Source: a virus (taxonomy: Duplodnaviria > Heunggongvirae > Uroviricota > Caudoviricetes). Taken from it: DNA of 31,378 nucleotides. The stretch's first letter is position 1. The number at the start of each line of letters is the position of its first letter. The notes beneath the pieces are model-generated. The model was given only the letters and a program-made list of their open reading frames with translations, was not told the origin of the DNA and ran no database searches. Made by a program: the position numbers and the translations under genes. The stretch lies in the IMG/VR virus record IMGVR_UViG_2667527976_000002; one strand, 5' to 3'. Positions 1,076 to 31,378 of the stretch are shown here, piece after piece.

Positions 1076-1990
1076 ATGCGCTCAATAAAAAAAGTAACCA
1101 TGCTCTTGGGGGGCCTCGCACTCACCTGCTCGATCGCATTTCAGGCAAGTGCAACTGAAAAATTCAAGGTCATTACAACATTTACCATCATCGCAGATAT
1201 GGCCAAAAACGTGGCTGGAGATGCTGCAGAAGTCTCATCCATAACCAAGCCCGGTGCAGAAATTCATGAGTATCAGCCTACCCCTGGCGATATTAAACGT
1301 GCGCAGGGGGCACAACTGATTCTCGCCAATGGTATGAATCTGGAATTGTGGTTCCAACGCTTTTACCAGCATCTTAATGGGGTTCCAGAAGTAATTGTCT
1401 CTTCGGGTGTGACGCCAGTAGGGATCACTGAAGGCCCCTATGAGGGCAAACCTAACCCCCATGCCTGGATGTCGCCAGATAATGCTCTGATTTACGTCGA
1501 TAATATTCGTGATGCGTTGATAAAATACGATCCGGCAAATGCACAAACCTACCAACGTAATGCCGATACTTATAAAGCCAAGATTACCCAAACCCTTGCC
1601 CCCCTGCGTAAGCAGATTGCTGAACTCCCTGAGAATCAGCGATGGATGGTCACCAGTGAAGGGGCTTTTTCTTATCTCGCACGCGATTTGGGGCTAAAAG
1701 AGCTTTATCTGTGGCCGATTAATGCCGATCAACAAGGCACGCCGCAGCAGGTACGTAAGGTTGTTGATATGGTGAAGAAAAATCATATCCCGGCAGTCTT
1801 TAGCGAGAGTACGATTTCCGATAAACCAGCGCGTCAGGTTGCGCGTGAAACCGGCGCGCACTACGGCGGTGTACTCTATGTCGATTCCCTGAGCACAGAA
1901 AACGGCCCGGTACCTACGTATATCGACCTTCTGAAGGTTACTACCAGTACGCTGGTACAGGGAATTAAAGCCGGGAAAAGGGAGAAATAA
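1076..1990 (+). CDS. sitA: Periplasmic Mn/Fe-binding protein of ABC transporter (cluster A-I / TroA-like), SitA
   Basis: 304-aa ORF with signal peptide ([26 protein letters not shown]); ATG start at 1076; stop overlaps the sitB start. Confidence 0.9.
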
Positions 1991-2817
1991 TGATGCAATC
2001 TGCGGGCATTGTCGTTAATGATGTTACTGTCACCTGGCGTAACGGGCACACAGCACTGCGCGATGCATCCTTCACAGTACCAAGTGGATCTATTGCCGCT
2101 CTGGTTGGGGTAAACGGTTCCGGAAAATCGACGTTGTTTAAAGCGATTATGGGATTTGTGCGTCTGACCAGCGGAAAGATATCTGTTCTGGGTATTCCCA
2201 CGCGACAGGCGCTACAGAAAAACCTGGTTGCCTACGTCCCTCAGTCAGAAGAGGTTGACTGGTCATTTCCTGTACTAGTGGAAGATGTGGTGATGATGGG
2301 CCGCTATGGGCACATGGGTATGTTGCGTATAGCCAAAAAGAGGGATCGTCAGATTGTCACCGATGCGCTGGAACGTGTCGATATGGTGGATTTTCGCCAT
2401 CGACAAATCGGCGAGCTTTCCGGTGGACAAAAGAAACGCGTCTTTCTGGCGAGAGCGATTGCACAGCAGGGTGATGTGATCCTGCTGGATGAACCTTTTA
2501 CCGGCGTTGATGTGAAAACCGAAGCGAAAATCATCAGCCTGTTGAGGGAGTTACGCGCGGAAGGCAAGACGATGCTTGTCTCAACGCACAATCTCGGCTC
2601 AGTCACGACATTTTGCGATTATACGGTCATGGTCAAAGGCACCGTCCTGGCAAGCGGGCCGACAGACACCACTTTTACAGCCGAGAACCTGGAGCTGGCT
2701 TTTAGCGGCGTACTGCGCCATGTCACACTTAACGGCTCGGAAGAAAGCATTATTACTGACGATGAACACCCTTTTGTGGCACATCGACCGTCAGCGGTGC
2801 AGGGGGAAGCAAGATGA
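1990..2817 (+). CDS. sitB: ABC transporter ATP-binding protein SitB
   Basis: 275 aa; Walker [13 protein letters not shown] signature LSGGQKKR, Walker B ILLDEP; start overlaps sitA stop (translational coupling). Confidence 0.9.
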
Positions 2818-3671
2818 ACGTGCTACTGGAACCCTTCAGCTATGAATATATGCTCAATGCGATGTGGGTCTCGGCGATGGTCGGCGGTCTCTGCGCTTTC
2901 CTGTCATGCTATCTGATGCTAAAAGGCTGGTCGCTGATTGGCGATGCGCTGTCGCACTCTATTGTCCCAGGTGTTGCGGGGGCATATATGCTGGGGCTTC
3001 CGTTTTCTCTGGGAGCCTTCTTTTCCGGCGGACTGGCAGCGGGCAGCATGCTGTTTCTTAACCAACGCACTCGCTTAAAAGAAGATGCCATCATCGGCCT
3101 GATCTTCTCCTCCTTTTTTGGCCTGGGGCTGTTTATGGTGTCATTGAACCCGACATCCGTGAACATTCAGACCATCGTCCTGGGCAATATTCTGGCAATC
3201 GATCCGGCGGATATCCTGCAACTCACTATCATTGGCATTCTCTCGATCATCGTGCTTTTTTTCAAATGGAAAGATCTTATGGTGACCTTTTTCGACGAGA
3301 ATCACGCTCGTGCTATTGGATTGCATCCGGGCAGATTAAAAATCCTCTTCTTCACCCTGCTGTCGGTTTCGACCGTTGCGGCGCTGCAAACGGTTGGTGC
3401 CTTTCTGGTGATCTGTCTGGTGGTGACTCCCGGTGCAACAGCATGGTTGTTAACCGATCGTTTTCCCCGCCTGCTCATAATTGCTGTAACTATTGGCAGT
3501 GTAACCAGTTTCCTCGGCGCGTGGGTCAGTTACTTTCTGGACGGCGCGACAGGTGGAATCATCGTGGTGGCGCAGACACTGCTGTTTCTTTTAGCATTTG
3601 TATTTGCGCCCACCCATGGGCTTTTGGCAAATCGTCGGCGTGCGCATAAAGCGCTGGAGGATCGCTCATGA
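2814..3671 (+). CDS. sitC: ABC transporter permease SitC
   Basis: 285-aa polytopic hydrophobic protein; start overlaps sitB stop by 4 nt. Confidence 0.9.
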
Positions 3672-4525
3672 TGGCATTATTACTGGAGCCACTGCAGTTC
3701 ACCTTTATGAGTCACGCACTGCTGATTTCACTGGTAGTTTCCATACCCTGTGCGCTGCTGTCGGTCTTTCTGGTCCTGAAAGGTTGGGCACTGATGGGTG
3801 ACGCGATGAGTCATGCGGTTTTTCCTGGCATCGTGCTTGCCTGGATTCTGGGGTTACCTCTGGCTACAGGGGCATTCGTCGCCGGAGTATTCTGCGCGGT
3901 GGCGACGGGATACCTGAAAGACAACAGCCGAATCAAGCAAGATACAGTGATGGGGATTGTTTTTTCTGGCATGTTTGCCGCAGGTCTGATCTTGTATATT
4001 GCAGTCAAACCAGACGTACATCTTGACCATATTCTTTTCGGCGACATGCTCGGGGTAACCATCGGCGATATAATCCAGACGGTGATTATTGCCGGGCTGG
4101 TTACACTTGTTATTAGCGTAAAATGGCGGGATTTTTTGCTGTTCAGCTTTGATTATCAACAGGCGCAGGTAAGCGGTTTGCATACGAGATGTCTGCATTA
4201 TGGGCTGCTGTGCATGGTCTCTCTGACCATTGTGGCGACGCTGAAAGCGGTAGGTATCATTCTCTCCATTTCTCTGCTCATTGCGCCTGGCGCCATTGCG
4301 GTACTCCTGACACAACGCTTTCATATTGCGCTCCTACTGGCGATTGGCATATCGGTAATAGTGTCAATGACTGGTGTCTGGTTGTCCTTTTTTATCGACA
4401 GTGCACCAGCTCCGACGATTGTCGTCTTATTCGCGGTTGTGTTCATCATGACGTTCACCGTTACCAGCATCAACGCACGCACAAAGGGAAACACCCATAC
4501 ACAGGATTTGTCATCACCCAATTAG
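3668..4525 (+). CDS. sitD: ABC transporter permease SitD
   Basis: 285-aa hydrophobic paralogue of SitC; ATGATG start overlaps sitC stop. Confidence 0.9.
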   Translation: MMALLLEPLQFTFMSHALLISLVVSIPCALLSVFLVLKGWALMGDAMSHAVFPGIVLAWILGLPLATGAFVAGVFCAVATGYLKDNSRIKQDTVMGIVFSGMFAAGLILYIAVKPDVHLDHILFGDMLGVTIGDIIQTVIIAGLVTLVISVKWRDFLLFSFDYQQAQVSGLHTRCLHYGLLCMVSLTIVATLKAVGIILSISLLIAPGAIAVLLTQRFHIALLLAIGISVIVSMTGVWLSFFIDSAPAPTIVVLFAVVFIMTFTVTSINARTKGNTHTQDLSSPN

Positions 4526-9007: not shown

Positions 9008-9607
9008 TCAGAACTTATAACCGACACCCACGATGAAACCGTCAGTGCGCCAGTCACCACTGCCGGAGCCTTCATAAGCAATATCAATGGCCACGGATTC
9101 GGTCGGGTTAAACTGCACGCCAGCTCCCCACGCCAGAGACGTGTTGCTGTGGCGACCGTCATCACTTCCGGTCAGCACATCGTGCGTTTTCCCCTTGTTG
9201 TCAGTTACGCGGAGGTAATCCCCGGAAAAAGTCGAAACACGGCTGTAAGCCATACCCGCCATCGCATACGCGCTGAACCATTCATTCACGCGCACAGACG
9301 GCCCCGCCATCACGCTGAACCAGCGGTTACGCACGGAATCTTTATGCCAGCGGGTATCGCTGTAACGGGTCAGCTGACGATTCTTGTATCCTGCATAACT
9401 GAATGACGTCACCAGCCCCAGCGTGTCCGTAAATTCATAACGGTATTTCACGTTAATGCCCTTCAGGTCATCACTGCCTGGCATATCAGTATGGGTCTGA
9501 AGATACCCGGCGCTTAGTGTGGACTGATGCTCTGCTGCGCTCGCTGGCGTACCAGCGGCAACCAGCCAGACTACTGCGGACAGAATAACAGCACATAATT
9601 TACGCAT
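9008..9607 (-). CDS. lom: Outer-membrane protein Lom (Ail/Lom family beta-barrel)
   Basis: 199 aa with signal peptide MRKLCAVILSAVVWLVAAGTPASA; body closely matches recalled lambda Lom; ATG at 9605-9607. Confidence 0.9.
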   Translation of the reverse strand: MRKLCAVILSAVVWLVAAGTPASAAEHQSTLSAGYLQTHTDMPGSDDLKGINVKYRYEFTDTLGLVTSFSYAGYKNRQLTRYSDTRWHKDSVRNRWFSVMAGPSVRVNEWFSAYAMAGMAYSRVSTFSGDYLRVTDNKGKTHDVLTGSDDGRHSNTSLAWGAGVQFNPTESVAIDIAYEGSGSGDWRTDGFIVGVGYKF

Positions 9608-15123: not shown

Positions 15124-15452
15124 CAGTTCACCACCTGTTCAAACTCTGCGCTGAACTCAACACGCAGCATACTGACCCGCGACGACCATTTTGCGCAGGT
15201 CACCTTTATCTGCCGCCACTCATAAGGCGGCGTCCACAGAAAGGCTTTCCAGCCCCCGTGCTCTTCCAGAAACGACTCCAGCGCCGCGGCCTCCCAACGG
15301 GGAACAGAAAGCGTCACGCTGTACGTTTTCAGGTTGGCATTCAGCCCGGCAGGCGCTCGCTGGGAATAGCCATCACCAAAGCGCACCTTTCTTACAGAAG
15401 GGGCCGAAGCCACATCCATACCGGGTTTCACTTTCCAGCGGAAGGTTTTCAT
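15123..15452 (-). CDS. M: Minor tail protein M
   Basis: 109 aa, MKTFRWKVKPGMDVASAPSVRKV...; start overlaps H stop. Confidence 0.9.
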   Translation of the reverse strand: MKTFRWKVKPGMDVASAPSVRKVRFGDGYSQRAPAGLNANLKTYSVTLSVPRWEAAALESFLEEHGGWKAFLWTPPYEWRQIKVTCAKWSSRVSMLRVEFSAEFEQVVN

Positions 15453-18013
15453 CGTCCACCTCCGGAGAACAGACCACCATCACGCATCTGCCCGGTCACA
15501 ACATCCATTGCCGCCTTACGGGCTACGTCATAAACAGCCTTCAGCGCCTGTGGCCCTATCTGACCGTTCGTGCCGTCGTTGTTAATCACCACATGGTTAT
15601 TCTGCTCAAACGTCCCGGACGCCTGCGACCGACTGTCCGCCATGCTGCCCGGTGTACCGACATAACCGCCGGTGGCATAGCCGCGCATAAGCCGGTAAAG
15701 ATTCCCCACGCCAATCCGGCTGGTTGCCTCCTTCGTGAAGACAAATTCACCACGGTGAACAATCCCCGCTGGCTCATATTTGCCGCCGGTTCCCGTAAAT
15801 CCTCCGGTCGCAAAATGGAATTTCGCCGCAGATGCCTGAATGGCTGTACCGCCTGACGCTGATGCACCGCCAATGACACGGCCGACACTCCCGACGATCC
15901 CCACCATTGCCTGCTTAAGCAGAATTTCTGTCATCATGGACAGCACGGAACGGGTGAAGCTGCGCCAGTTCTGTTCACTGCCGGTCAGCATCGCCGCCAT
16001 ATTCTGTGCAATACCATCAAAGGTCTGCGTGGCTGCACTTTTTACCTGCGACATACTGTCCGTGGCGCTCTCTTCCCACTCACTCCAGCCGGACTTCAGG
16101 CCTGCCATCCAGTTCCCGCGAAGCTGGTCTTCAGCCGCCCAGGTCTTTTTCTGCTCTGACATGACGTTATTCAGCGCCAGCGGATTATCGCCATACTGTT
16201 CCTTCAGGCGCTGTTCCGTGGCGTCCCGCGCTGCCTGCCGGTCAGTCAGCCCCCGGTTTTTCGCCTCAATGGCTGCCCGTTTTGCCCGTTGCTGCTGTGC
16301 GAATTTATCCGCCTGCTGCGCCAGCGCGTTCAGGTGCTCCTGATACGTGACCTTATCGCCAAGTGCAGCCAGCTGGCGTTTGTACTCCAGCGTCTCATCT
16401 TTATGCGCCAGCAGGGATTTCTCCTGTGCGGACAGCTGGCGACGTTGCGCCGCCTCCTCCAGTACCGCGAACTGACTTTCCGCCTTCCACAAATCCCGGC
16501 GCTGCTGGCTGATTTTCTCATTCGCTCCGGCATGCTTCTCCAGTGTCCGGAGTTCTGCCTGAAGCGTCAGCAGGGCAGCATGAGCACTGTCTTCCTGACG
16601 ATCGCCCGCAGACACTTTCACGCCGGACTGCTTCGGCTTTTTCAGCGTCGCTTCATAGTCCTTTTTCGCCGCCGCCATCAGCGTGTTGTAATCTGCCTGC
16701 AGGATTTTTCCGTCTTTCAGTGCCTTATTCAGTTCCTCCTGGCGGGCGGTATATTTCTCCAGCGGTGTCTGCAGGCGTTCGTAAGCCTTCTGCGCCTCTT
16801 CGGTATATTTCAGCCGTGATGCCTCAGACTCGGCCCGATCTTTTGCTGCCATCTCACTGGCCTTTTCAAGATCTGCCTGCAACGTGGCGGCTGAAAGCCC
16901 AAGTCGCGCATTCTCTCTCTTCTCCCATGCCCCCCGGAGATTGGCAAGAAATGCTGACGTTTTACCGCGCCGGTGGCTTCGGCTCTGATACCACTGCCAT
17001 TTTTTATCCGCTTCATCAAAAGCCTTTTCAGCTTTGGCGAGCATATCTGCAGAGGAGTCCGGGCGACCAATATCCAGCACCGCATCCCACATGGATTTGA
17101 ATGCCTGTGCAGTCTTGTCTGCCCAGGTCTCCAGCGTACCCATGTTATCTTTCAGTTTACGGGTCTGGTCATCAAACCCTTTCGTTGCGGCCTCGTTCGC
17201 CGCCTGCAATGCCCCGGCCCCATCGCCGGAACGCTGCAACTGAGCAACATACGCAATCTGTTCCGCCGTCACGTTATGGAACTGGCGCGCCATCGCCGTC
17301 AACCCAGACGTCGGGTCAGTGGTCAGCTTCCCGAAGGCTTCAGCGACCTTGTCCACCTCCACGCCGGATGCAGAGGAGAAACGCGCCACACTCTGGCTGA
17401 TTGCCTCAAACTGCTCACCACCACGCACACCGGCATTCACCAGCGCCGTCAGTGACTCGCTGGTCTGGTTAAACGTCAGCCCTGCCGCCTGCCCGGATCT
17501 GGACAGGGCCAGCATACGATCTGCCGTCAGTCCCGCCTGATTACCGGAAAGGACCAGCGTTTTATTGAAATTGGACAGGGTTGAGTCACCCTGATACCAG
17601 GCATACGCCAGCGCACCGGTCGCCACCGCCAGCGAAGTGATACCAACCATCGGCAGGGTGATCGCACCGGCAAGCCCCCTGAACATGGGGATCATCCCGC
17701 CGAAGGAGTCCTTCACCTGACCACCCTGTTGCAGCAGGATGAGCCACGGATTCTGCCCCCCTGCAAGCTGCGTGGCCACGTCGGTGAACTGCGCAGGCAG
17801 CATACGCATGGCAGCTTTATACTGCCCGACGGAAATCCCCGCTTTCTGTGCAGCCAGCGCCTGCCGGTTCATTGACTGTTCAACGACTGCCGCTGTTTTT
17901 TTCGCATCACTTTCCGTACCGGAAAAATGACGCCTGACTCTGGCCATCTGCTCGTCAAATCTGGCCGCATCCAGACTTAAATCAACGACCAGATCGCCTA
18001 CCGGTTCAGCCAT
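15449..18013 (-). CDS. H: Tail tape measure protein H
   Basis: 854 aa, long helical protein with a Gly-rich C-terminus, lambda H-like; start overlaps the T stop. Confidence 0.95.
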   Translation of the reverse strand: MAEPVGDLVVDLSLDAARFDEQMARVRRHFSGTESDAKKTAAVVEQSMNRQALAAQKAGISVGQYKAAMRMLPAQFTDVATQLAGGQNPWLILLQQGGQVKDSFGGMIPMFRGLAGAITLPMVGITSLAVATGALAYAWYQGDSTLSNFNKTLVLSGNQAGLTADRMLALSRSGQAAGLTFNQTSESLTALVNAGVRGGEQFEAISQSVARFSSASGVEVDKVAEAFGKLTTDPTSGLTAMARQFHNVTAEQIAYVAQLQRSGDGAGALQAANEAATKGFDDQTRKLKDNMGTLETWADKTAQAFKSMWDAVLDIGRPDSSADMLAKAEKAFDEADKKWQWYQSRSHRRGKTSAFLANLRGAWEKRENARLGLSAATLQADLEKASEMAAKDRAESEASRLKYTEEAQKAYERLQTPLEKYTARQEELNKALKDGKILQADYNTLMAAAKKDYEATLKKPKQSGVKVSAGDRQEDSAHAALLTLQAELRTLEKHAGANEKISQQRRDLWKAESQFAVLEEAAQRRQLSAQEKSLLAHKDETLEYKRQLAALGDKVTYQEHLNALAQQADKFAQQQRAKRAAIEAKNRGLTDRQAARDATEQRLKEQYGDNPLALNNVMSEQKKTWAAEDQLRGNWMAGLKSGWSEWEESATDSMSQVKSAATQTFDGIAQNMAAMLTGSEQNWRSFTRSVLSMMTEILLKQAMVGIVGSVGRVIGGASASGGTAIQASAAKFHFATGGFTGTGGKYEPAGIVHRGEFVFTKEATSRIGVGNLYRLMRGYATGGYVGTPGSMADSRSQASGTFEQNNHVVINNDGTNGQIGPQALKAVYDVARKAAMDVVTGQMRDGGLFSGGGR

Positions 18014-24138: not shown

Positions 24139-27819
<3,681 letters not shown>

Positions 27820-27845
<26 letters not shown>

Positions 27846-28365
27846 TCAGCAACCCCGGTATCAGTTCATCCAGCGCGGCTGCTTTGTTCATGGCTTTGAT
27901 GATATCCCGTTTCAGGAAATCAACATGTCGGTTTTCCAGTTCCGGAAAACGCCGCTGCACCGACAGGGGGATCCCGTCGAGAATACTGGCAATTTCACCT
28001 GCGATACGCGACAGCACGAAAGTACAGAATGCGGTTTCCACCACTTCAGCGGAGTCTCTGGCATTTTTCAGCTCCTGTGCATCGGCCTGCGCACGCGTAA
28101 GTCGATGGCGTTCGTACTCAATAGTCCCTGGCTGGAGATCTGTCTCGCTGGCCTGCAGCAGTTCTTCAACCTCCCGGCGCAGCTTTTCGTTCTCAATTTC
28201 AGCATCCCTTTCGGCATACCATTTTATGACGGCGGCAGAGTCATAAAGCACCTCATTACCCTTGCCACCGCCTCGCAGAACGGGCATTCCCTGTTCCTGC
28301 CAGTTCTGAATGGTACGGATACTCGCACCGAAAATGTCAGCCAGCTGCTTTTTGTTGACTTCCAT
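27820..28365 (-). CDS. Nu1: Terminase small subunit Nu1
   Basis: 181 aa, MEVNKKQLADIFGASIRTIQNWQEQGMPV... (winged-HTH DNA-binding N-terminus); starts 189 nt from cosN as in lambda. Confidence 0.95.
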
Positions 28366-29032: not shown

Positions 29033-29326
29033 ATGAAAAAAATGTTGTTTTCTGCCGCTCTGGCAATGCTTATTACAGGATGTGCTCAACAGACGTTTAC
29101 TGTTGGAAACAAACCGACAGCAGTAACACCAAAGGAAACCATCACCCATCATTTCTTCGTTTCGGGAATTGGACAGGAGAAAACTGTTGATGCAGCCAAA
29201 ATTTGTGGCGGCGCAGAAAATGTTGTTAAAACAGAAACCCAGCAAACATTCGTAAATGGATTGCTCGGTTTTATTACTTTAGGCATTTATACTCCGCTGG
29301 AAGCGCGTGTCTATTGCTCACAATAA
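29033..29326 (+). CDS. bor: Bor lipoprotein (Bor/Iss family, serum-resistance associated)
   Basis: 97 aa from the ATG at 29033, MKKMLFSAALAMLITGCAQQTFTV... with lipobox ITGC; the track ORF has a 16-codon upstream extension; opposite strand to the late genes as in lambda. Confidence 0.85.
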   Translation: MKKMLFSAALAMLITGCAQQTFTVGNKPTAVTPKETITHHFFVSGIGQEKTVDAAKICGGAENVVKTETQQTFVNGLLGFITLGIYTPLEARVYCSQ

Positions 29327-29357: not shown

Positions 29358-29819
29358 CTATCTGCACTGCTCATTAATATACTTCTGGGTTCCTTCCAGT
29401 TGTTTTTGCATCGTGATCAGCCTCTCTCTGAGGGTGAAATAATCCCGTTCAGCGGTGTCTGCCAGTCGGGGGGAGGCTGCATTATCCACGCCGGAGGCGG
29501 TGGTGGCTTCACGCACTGACTGACAGACTGCTTTGATGTGCAACCGACGACGACCAGCGGCAACATCATCACGCAGAGCATCATTTTCAGCTTTCGCATC
29601 AGCTAACTCCTTCGTGTATTTTGCATCGAGCGCAGCAACATCACGCTGACGCATCTGCATGTCAGTAATTGCCGCATTCGCCAGCTTCAGTTCTCTGGCA
29701 TTTTTGTCGCGCTGGGCTTTGTAGGTAATGGCGTTATCACGGTAATGATTAACAGTCCATAACAGGCAGACGATGATGCAGATGAGCAGAGCGGAGATAA
29801 TCGCGGTTAACCGACTCAT
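29358..29819 (-). CDS. Rz: Spanin, inner-membrane subunit Rz
   Basis: 153 aa from ATG 29817-29819 ([36 protein letters not shown]...); the longer track ORF was rejected. Confidence 0.9.
29417..29599 (-). CDS. Rz1: Spanin, outer-membrane lipoprotein subunit Rz1 (embedded in Rz, +1 frame)
   Basis: 60 aa, M(R)[44 protein letters not shown]..., lipobox VVGC and proline-rich region. Confidence 0.85.
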
Positions 29820-29907
29820 GACATCAACACTCCAACAGCCAGAAACCACGGCCACGCATCGTTGCCATTGAATGCGAGCAACGCTGCCATGAAAAAGCAA
29901 ATCATGC

Positions 29908-30405
29908 TCATTGTTGCCCCCACAAACAGACTTCACGCTCAATCTCACGGCGAGTCATCAGCCCTTTCCATTGCTTACCGCCAGCGTATGTCCAGCGCCG
30001 TAGCTGATCACATGCGCCTTTGATATCGCCCTGGTTTATTTTGCGAAGAAGCGTCGATGTTCTGAAATTGCCAGCGCCCACGTTGTAAACGAATGAGTAA
30101 AGAGCGCCGCGCGTTGTTTCCGGTATATCGACTGTGATGTACGGGTTAATTTGTCTGGCGACAGTGGCAAGGTCTTTATTCAGGAGGGCTTTGCATTCTG
30201 CTTCGGTATACGTTTTACCGAGCATGATGTCTTTTCCGGTGTGTCCGTGACATACAGTCCATACGCCAACGATATCTTTGTATGGTATGTAGCTGACACC
30301 TTCCAGGCCATCGTCACCACTCGGACCAGTGATGAGCACAGACGCTATGGCAACAGCCCCACCACCAATAGCAGCAGCAATAGCCTTGCGTAATGATGGC
30401 GACAT
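29908..30405 (-). CDS. R: SAR endolysin (T4-lysozyme-like muramidase with N-terminal signal-anchor-release domain), phage 21 R-type
   Basis: 165 aa; Gly/Ala-rich weakly hydrophobic N-terminus [20 protein letters not shown] followed by an E...D...T lysozyme catalytic region; matches recalled R21. Confidence 0.85.
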
Positions 30406-30620
30406 TATTCACCTCTCGCAGCCTTACGCTTATCTTCTTTAATCTTGAAATAAAGGTTTGTCAGATACGTCAGCAAGCCAAATACCAGACTACCCAGCAC
30501 ACCTATTGCCGCCCACTGTGAGGGCGTGACTTTATCGAGCAACTGTAAAAACCAGTACCCGGCACTACCTGCTGAGGTGCCATAGGCGACACCCGTTGTT
30601 AACTTATCCATGGATTTCAT
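30405..30620 (-). CDS. S: Pinholin, phage 21 S-type, with dual-start motif M1-K-S-M4
   Basis: 71 aa, [71 protein letters not shown]; two TM segments; Met1 and Met4 are both in frame (antiholin and holin starts). Confidence 0.85.
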
Positions 30621-30749
30621 AACCCCACCTCGCAGACAAAGCGGGTGTAAATTAAGGGGATACTACGTATCGCAATAAAGGCAGAAACGTAACAGATTTG
30701 GAGTCAGTGAATAACTCAGGTATTGGGTTATCAGCTAATATCGAGACTC

Positions 30750-30782
30750 AAAAAATGGAAAAACCCGCTCGACGGCGGGTTT
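30750..30782 (-). terminator. Candidate rho-independent terminator upstream of S (minus strand)
   Basis: Minus-strand hairpin aaacccgc-cgtcga-gcgggttt followed by uuccauuuuuu. Confidence 0.35.
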
Positions 30783-31110
30783 AAGCTGTGTGACGAAGTA
30801 ACCACTCTTAACAGCATAACCAATTTTTTACGTACGTAAACTACTAAATGATATTTGTGAGAATGCCACCGAGTGTTCAAAACACCACCACAAATACATA
30901 AGAAAACTTCAACAAATAACCAATGAATAATTTCCGATGTTATTTTTAGTTTGTTTAAATTAAGCTAAAGAATTATAGAGCGCTTATAAATAAGTGCCAT
31001 TAATATAAATTAGCTAATAGATTTATTTTCGTTCAAACAAGAGCCATGAATAGGATTAGATAGAAAAGGTTCAGATAAAAATAGAGATCTACTTCACAAA
31101 TTAAATGAGA

Positions 31111-31306
31111 AACTAAAACTTACATCTTGAAATAATCGCATTGATTAGATGAATATTTATCGCGCAGTGACATCATTTTTTAATAATAGTTCAAAAAAAA
31201 GGGCGTACAACTAAAACTTACATCTTGAAATAATCTCATTGATTAGATGAATATTTGTAGTGCAGTGACATCATTTTTAAATAATAGTTCAAATAAAAGG
31301 GCTCAC
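31111..31306 (+). repeat. Tandem direct duplication (2 x 98 bp, ~90% identical) immediately upstream of the porin-like gene
   Basis: Unit aactaaaacttacatcttgaaataatc(g/t)cattgattagatgaatattt...cagtgacatcattttt...aatagttcaaa...aaaaggg at 31111-31208 and 31209-31306; the second copy ends 1 nt before the ATG. Confidence 0.75.
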
Positions 31307-31307
31307 G

Positions 31308-31378
31308 ATGAAAAAATTAACAGTGGCAATTTCTGCTGTAGCTGCATCAGTACTGATGGCGATGTCTGCTCAGGCAGC
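31308..31378 (+). CDS. 5' end of a secreted or outer-membrane protein gene, probably a prophage-encoded OmpC-family porin (truncated by the window edge)
   Basis: ATG at 31308 followed by MKKLTVAISAVAASVLMAMSAQA, a classical signal peptide ending AQA. Position (beyond the lysis genes, opposite strand) and N-terminus agree with my recollection of NmpC/Lc-type phage porins. Only 23 codons are visible. Confidence 0.5.
   Translation, partial: MKKLTVAISAVAASVLMAMSAQA

Follow-up and report, generated by a model that had tools for sequence, protein, structure and literature searches.

The 31,378-bp stretch of DNA analyzed here (the window) makes up the complete contig AOQO01000103.1 of a 2013-era NCBI draft assembly (GCA_000397485.1). 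Close to its right end, the promoter and leader of a prophage porin gene stand twice in tandem, and this 98-bp repeat is probably an assembly mis-join of two paralogous alleles rather than a real feature of the bacterium's DNA.

A tandem repeat upstream of a prophage porin gene

A repeat search and TRF agreed on an array with a period of 98 and 2.0 copies, comprising 31111-31208 and 31209-31306 (TRF score 342). The two copies are identical at 90/98 positions (92%), with zero indels and in perfect register, and their eight mismatches lie at unit positions 28, 49, 51, 53, 71, 86, 95 and 96. The original prediction had described two copies at these positions with ~90% identity, followed by a start codon at 31308, and all of these values were right (ATG, 31308-31310). 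The sequence that it had found shared by both copies was confirmed as CTTACATCTTGAAAT, located at 31119-31133 and 31217-31231; its interpretation overall is partly supported, as discussed below. A pattern spanning the junction between the copies occurred once in the window and in 0 of 100 shuffles; the repeat is therefore beyond chance and really present in the deposited sequence. A 21-codon ORF also runs over the junction (31149-31214, + strand; MNIYRAVTSFFNNSSKKRAYN); it lacks a ribosome-binding site and probably has no significance.

Each copy matches a different widespread allele

The two halves of the array were found to match different alleles. The distal copy (copy 1, 31111-31208, + strand) and its upstream flank are 100% identical to one allele, termed A. 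This identity extends over 31000-31208, and allele A was present in ~300 complete genomes, including prophages aligned with the window over 25-31 kb. The proximal copy (copy 2, 31209-31306, + strand) and the adjoining 31307-31378 are 100% identical, over the whole of 31209-31378, to a second allele, B. Allele B was found in ~600 genomes, where it has no lysis-gene context and, in ExPEC such as Nissle 1917 and MCJCHV-1, adjoins yedE-yedF-yedK. At the junction (31209-31210, + strand), the fit to allele A extends through 31210 and that to allele B begins at 31209, leaving a 2-nt overlap (AA).

The yedK-side porin ('porin OmpC', WP_000737290.1, in Nissle 1917 and MCJCHV-1) belongs to a separate chromosomal locus with the order yedE-yedF-yedK, porin, ybcM-ybcL, and its upstream sequence diverges from the window left of 31100. 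This second lc/nmpC-type porin locus of ExPEC, lying between yedK and ybcM-ybcL (526960-528042 in Nissle 1917 and 2045298-2046380 in MCJCHV-1), has no adjoining lysis genes and resembles a remnant of a prophage. Among the alleles of the family seen, the one in its promoter region is the most divergent. Both alleles were observed together in one strain, MCJCHV-1, whose complete genome has A at one locus and B at another. In each of the closest relatives of the window, two or three places match.

On the prophage side, positions 6300-31208 are 100.0% identical to GN02350, UPEC132, N50 and others. Over 1-31210 (31,210 nt), the window differs from the icd-integrated prophage of uropathogenic UPEC132 by 11 mismatches and one 2-nt gap, and the UPEC132 locus contains one copy of the unit. 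A recent duplication would have given identical copies, and an old one would not have given two perfect matches to widespread alleles, so neither fits the array. An ancient duplication followed by divergence was rejected on the same grounds, since for both copies a widespread single-copy allele is 100% identical.

The unit is single copy in related loci

We searched 36 phage and 3,194 E. coli records for matches to 30780-31378. In all matches listed, the 599 bases of the window aligned to ~501 subject bases, in two pieces or, where IS1 was inserted, three, which indicates one copy of the unit in those records. A 91-nt probe over the junction was covered at ≥80% at 0 of 3,603 places in 2,885 complete genomes and in 0 of 32 phages. 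The exact junction pattern, written with degenerate positions, gave no match in IMG/VR, one genome per GTDB species or JGI metagenomes. A relaxed pattern (leader, 20-50 nt, OmpR box), which would also catch other breakpoints, recognized the window itself and gave no match in IMG/VR or JGI metagenomes. When arranged in single-copy order, as a positive control, these elements were recovered from at least 120 viral contigs. One copy was likewise present in each of the 126 loci that we extracted, representing 26 distinct alleles; the single-copy state of the UPEC132-like type reads ...AAAAGGGCGTACAATGAAAAAATT.... PA-2, K-12 and the other loci examined thus have one 98-bp unit, whereas the window has two.

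The duplication is not a conserved design. It had been suggested from the sequence that the doubled elements could alter the regulation of a phage porin, a reading that is not supported, on three counts: the related loci examined all have one copy, the two copies are pre-existing alleles, and their join has the geometry of a mis-join. The repeat is also not a common intergenic element unlinked to the promoter, as it consists of promoter and leader and is private to this contig.

Contig geometry points to a probable assembly mis-join

Alleles A and B are identical in two segments of this region. The first, S1 (31101-31137, + strand; 37 nt, TTAAATGAG...AATAATC), has its final 26 nt repeated at 31210-31235, and the second, S2, covers the last 71 nt of the contig (31308-31378). 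Between S1 and S2, the alleles show nine differences over exactly 72 nt. The order in the window is S1, the 72 nt of A, the last 26 nt of S1, the 72 nt of B and S2. Using a script, we observed that the two arms of such a bubble, written in series, reproduce 31101-31378 exactly at k = 27 and at no other k; the period of 98 equals 72 + 26, the count of 27-mers in one bubble arm. A forward variant, in which the A arm is followed by the first k-1 nt of S2 and then by the B arm, was rejected, as it fits for no k. The A part stops on the last A/B-discriminating base, 31209 being the final base that tells A from B before S2. The right end of the contig is the last base shared by A and B, with nucleotide 72 of the gene differing between them.

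Such an array could have arisen as follows. In a strain of this type, the icd-integrated sitABCD prophage can carry allele A, and the remnant beside yedK allele B. The 72-nt stretch flanked by S1 and S2 would then form a two-arm bubble in a de Bruijn graph, and the assembler would have written the A arm and then the B arm in series (with k fitted as 27), stopping at the next A/B difference. Consistent with this scenario, each part of the array comes from a different paralogue, both of which are able to share one genome; the breakpoints and the period follow the allele markers and k-1, and the contig ends at the next marker. Two points weigh against it: the junction contains no Ns, and a plain de Bruijn graph would have no edge between the arms, so that an extra scaffolding, merging or consensus step has to be assumed.

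The left contig end (1-140) lies in a 168-bp piece of icd (icd') marking the attachment site. Here, we observed a hybrid of two copies of the icd 3' end, in which ACTCGCTGAACATTTC merges icd' (ACTCGCTGCATTTC) and icd (ACTCTGAACATTTC) and contains two extra nucleotides (31-32); icd-like bases are also found at 83 and 98. Among 7,041 places in 5,407 complete genomes, the best match to 1-140 reached 97.9%, and none was ≥99% identical or had the 2-nt insertion. The presence of a singular paralogue hybrid at each end of the contig points to the assembly, not to the bacterium.

Assemblies are known to acquire false tandem duplications when both of two alternative alleles (haplotypes or paralogues) are placed in them; this class of error is usually described for heterozygous diploids and at scaffold gaps. 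The array studied here resembles such errors in its near-identical alternatives in series, its breakpoints at allele markers, its position at a contig end and a junction without support elsewhere. It differs from the usual cases in that paralogues of a haploid genome are involved and the join is seamless. With hybrids at both of its ends, contig AOQO01000103.1 is a cautionary case: draft contig ends in paralogous repeats can hold seamless false tandem duplications that resemble regulatory innovations.

The downstream gene is an lc/nmpC-type porin

The gene that follows the array (31308-31378, + strand; MKKLTVAISAVAASVLMAMSAQA plus 2 nt) coincides with S2, its 71 nt being the same in A and B, and leaves the window at that point, cut by the contig end. 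These 71 nt are identical to positions 1492-1562 of PA-2 lc, that is, to the first 71 nt of this gene (GenBank J02580; Blasband, Marcotte & Schnaitman 1986); the record annotates 1492-1560 (69 nt) as signal peptide. The ORF is the lc/nmpC-type porin of lambdoid prophages, which bears out the original prediction of a porin-like signal peptide on a gene starting at 31308. GenBank annotators have named this prophage porin lc, NmpC, OmpD or 'porin OmpC'. The porin gene measures 1,083 bp in complete relatives, and a homologous locus in another genome, reached via the terminase protein of the window, encodes a porin of 360 aa (PF00267/PF13609). The porin is placed between antiterminator Q and holin S, antisense to the late operon, the holin side being visible in the window and the Q side in relatives only. 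Both the ORFs and the annotation of relatives agree with the proposal that the gene lies past the lysis cassette on the strand opposite to the late operon, and the Q-porin-S arrangement is the same as in DLP12 of K-12.

PA-2 is 92-93% identical to the window over 30780-31378 (599 bp). Its lc gene and nmpC of the DLP12 (qsr') cryptic prophage of K-12 have the same place and orientation by the holin/lysis genes. Judged by alignment, the CRP site, OmpR box, -35/-10 elements and ribosome-binding site of lc/nmpC would also be as in the window. The K-12 nmpC gene is interrupted by IS5, whereas the gene studied here is truncated by the contig end. Descriptions of the lc/nmpC gene, its position, its catabolite control and its repression by OmpR go back to Blasband et al. 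1986 and Coll et al. 1994, as relayed in PMC11677980 and PMC5438342. The system, in which a prophage porin between Q and S is activated by CRP and repressed by OmpR, is already described, and nothing in the window departs from it except the 98-bp repeat.

Promoter and leader elements in the 98-bp unit

Promoter elements were placed by alignment to K-12 nmpC and PA-2 lc and by using two published data sets. The nmpC promoter PnmpC is a sigma-70 promoter with its start at a G; Crp activates nmpC at two sites, OmpR, IHF and MprA repress it, and RyhB targets it (PMC11677980). For OmpR, a ChIP-exo peak is reported for nmpC at 576106-576166 of NC_000913.2, with mode 'Rep' and a start-site distance of 43 bp (PMC5438342, Supplementary Table 1). 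We moved the peak coordinates to NC_000913.3 by +777, an offset that gives the table's value for ompF (-87.5) exactly. In K-12, the OmpR peak spans ...CTACTTCACAAATCAAACGAGAAACCAAAACTTACATCTTGAAATAATCACATTGATTAGATG, and its centre lies ≤7 bp from the centre of the box CTTACATCTTGAAATAATC. The base 43 bp downstream of the peak centre is a G (position 3371 of locus L006, equivalent to window 31164), while the other reading of the table's ambiguous sign leads to an A. Since the nmpC start was reported as G, we prefer this G, as mapped from the peak, as the start site.

On the + strand of the window, the OmpR-type box located by the K-12 ChIP-exo mapping lies at 31119-31137 in the distal copy, overlapping a putative -35 element (TTGAAA, 31127-31132), and at 31217-31235 in the proximal copy, again overlapping TTGAAA (31225-31230). 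The distal unit would have its -10 element GAATAT at 31151-31156 and its start-equivalent G at 31164 (31151-31164, + strand). In the proximal unit, the corresponding positions would be 31249-31254 and 31262 (31249-31262, + strand). The putative -35 and -10 elements are separated by an 18-bp spacer in each unit. From the proximal start, a leader of 46 nt (31262-31307, + strand) would extend to the gene, with the Shine-Dalgarno sequence AAGGG at 31297-31301, 6 nt before the ATG.

A putative homologue of the distal CRP site lies at 30786-30806 (+ strand), its annotation carried over by alignment from PA-2 lc (J02580 1067-1087). The core of the proximal CRP site, AGAGATCTACTTCACA (31083-31098; TGTGA-N6-TCTCT on the - strand), is the homologue of J02580 1363-1383; it is located outside the repeat and is hence single. 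Relative to the distal start, the CRP centre lies at -73.5 (-71.5 if the G two bases further upstream is taken instead); relative to the proximal start, it lies at -171.5. A CRP site ~72 bp upstream of the start would occupy a class-I-type position. By homology to K-12 and PA-2, the CRP site and the OmpR box appear to stand at the positions described for nmpC/lc, the regulation itself being taken from the literature. OmpR bound over the -35 element TTGAAA would block RNA polymerase. This placement over the -35, associated with repression, differs from that at ompC, where the OmpR box lies upstream of the -35 and serves activation.

The suggestion that each copy contains an OmpR box is right in substance and already known, as the homologous box of K-12 lies under the ChIP-exo peak and nmpC is repressed by OmpR (PMC5438342, PMC11677980). 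The sequence match alone, however, is not significant: the box agrees with the 15-nt ompC C1 core at 12/15 positions (3 mismatches), and the window contains three such matches, versus 0.91 ± 0.92 expected. When the unit was aligned locally to the ompC upstream region, the highest-ranking match was the C1 core TTACATTTTGAAA (12/13); compared with C1, the second half-site of the unit is without the conserved AC.

A further proposal, that the proximal copy resembles the ompC leader, was not upheld. Local alignment of the whole unit scored 21 versus 18.5 ± 2.8 for shuffles, with 65 of 300 shuffles as good. The leader alone scored 16 against the ompC leader (shuffle mean, 16.8), and the sole segment aligned between the unit and the ompC upstream region plus leader was the 13-nt OmpR core. 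An Rfam scan of 30600-31378 at a permissive E-value identified no family; a single sub-threshold match to Trp_leader on the other strand was rejected (20 bits versus a gathering score of 41). Folding of the 46-nt leader and of a hypothetical 144-nt leader gave structures no stabler than those of shuffles (z = -0.63 and +0.27, respectively) and thus no sign of a selected RNA element or structured leader. A generic sigma-70 scan reported no + strand promoter at its thresholds. The sole consensus sigma-70-like site in the S-porin intergenic region (30972-31000, - strand; ATGGCA-17-TATAAT, 10/12), a count lower than in shuffles, is probably due to chance.

Alternative explanations for the repeat

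A real duplication private to the isolate appears unlikely, although several observations would suit it. Template switching or ectopic recombination involving the porin locus of the prophage and its paralogue beside yedK would have fused the prophage leader, up to and including the A of ATG, to the paralogue at its position -99, with 2-nt microhomology at the join and downstream homology resolving the event. Such microhomology fits illegitimate joining, lambdoid prophages are mosaic, and the alleles at the porin locus are visibly recombinant. Seamless k-mer assembly without Ns normally needs reads containing the junction, and 18-52 k-mers of the window over the junction are present in neither parental locus. 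In addition, the array leaves intact the two core promoters, the two OmpR boxes and the proximal ribosome-binding site. On the other hand, >4,000 loci provided no second example, and the junction occurred in no independent sequence among complete E. coli genomes, phages, IMG/VR, GTDB genomes and JGI metagenomes. For a biological breakpoint, a position on the last allele-discriminating base together with a period of one arm plus k-1 would have a chance of a few percent by rough estimate. The left contig end is a unique paralogue hybrid as well, and two rare real events at both ends are improbable. The folding results for the short and the long leader given above also count against a real duplication.

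If the duplication were true, the distal promoter would keep CRP at ~-72 and yield a leader longer by 98 nt, which would have to pass the second OmpR box, while the proximal promoter, with CRP at ~-171.5, would probably be weak or largely CRP-independent. This would constitute regulatory rewiring by paralogue recombination, with the proximal promoter uncoupled from CRP and a second OmpR operator added. As a regulatory variant of a porin gene familiar since the 1980s, it would be minor and private to the strain, and of modest interest for the rewiring of prophage morons.

Highly improbable is the original view of the doubled promoter and leader as an ompC-leader-related regulatory design for osmoregulation or small-RNA control: each copy does contain an OmpR-type box that is bound in K-12, and two boxes separated by 98 bp might in principle be occupied cooperatively by OmpR, but the array is not conserved in any relative, even those 100.0% identical over 24.9 kb, its copies are heterologous alleles rather than a diverged ancient duplication, and it shows no ompC-leader similarity above shuffles, no Rfam family and no structured leader.

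Prophage surroundings

The window represents a lambdoid prophage on the minus strand, with tail and head genes and, among others, terminase A (25920-27845, - strand) and Nu1 (27820-28365, - strand). Its lysis cassette begins with the holin gene (S/EssD; 30405-30620, - strand), as assigned from the ORFs and the annotation of the near-identical UPEC132 prophage, and further includes the endolysin (29908-30405, - strand) and Rz/Rz1 (29358-29948, - strand). The element, a sitABCD/iss prophage inserted at icd in uropathogenic E. coli, is the virulence-associated icd prophage already known from ExPEC. Besides the porin, it contains three cargo ('moron') loci: the iron/manganese transporter sitABCD (1076-4525, + strand), which adjoins the attachment site, a Lom/Ail outer-membrane protein (9008-9607, - strand) and the bor homologue iss (increased serum survival; bor/iss moron, 29033-29326, + strand). 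In PA-2 lysogens, the porin replaces OmpC, the receptor of the phage, which represents a case of lysogenic conversion.

A terminator-like hairpin is located on the late-operon strand at 30761-30782 (- strand), with an 8-bp stem containing 5 G-C pairs and a T-rich tail. It lies ~140 bp upstream of the holin start and is conserved in PA-2 and K-12 DLP12; late transcripts from Q/pR' must run antisense through the porin gene and subsequently pass this hairpin. The window also encodes a variant of the tape-measure protein (R712; 15449-18013, - strand) that, in a collection of 15 billion proteins, occurs in one contig only, AOQO01000103.1.
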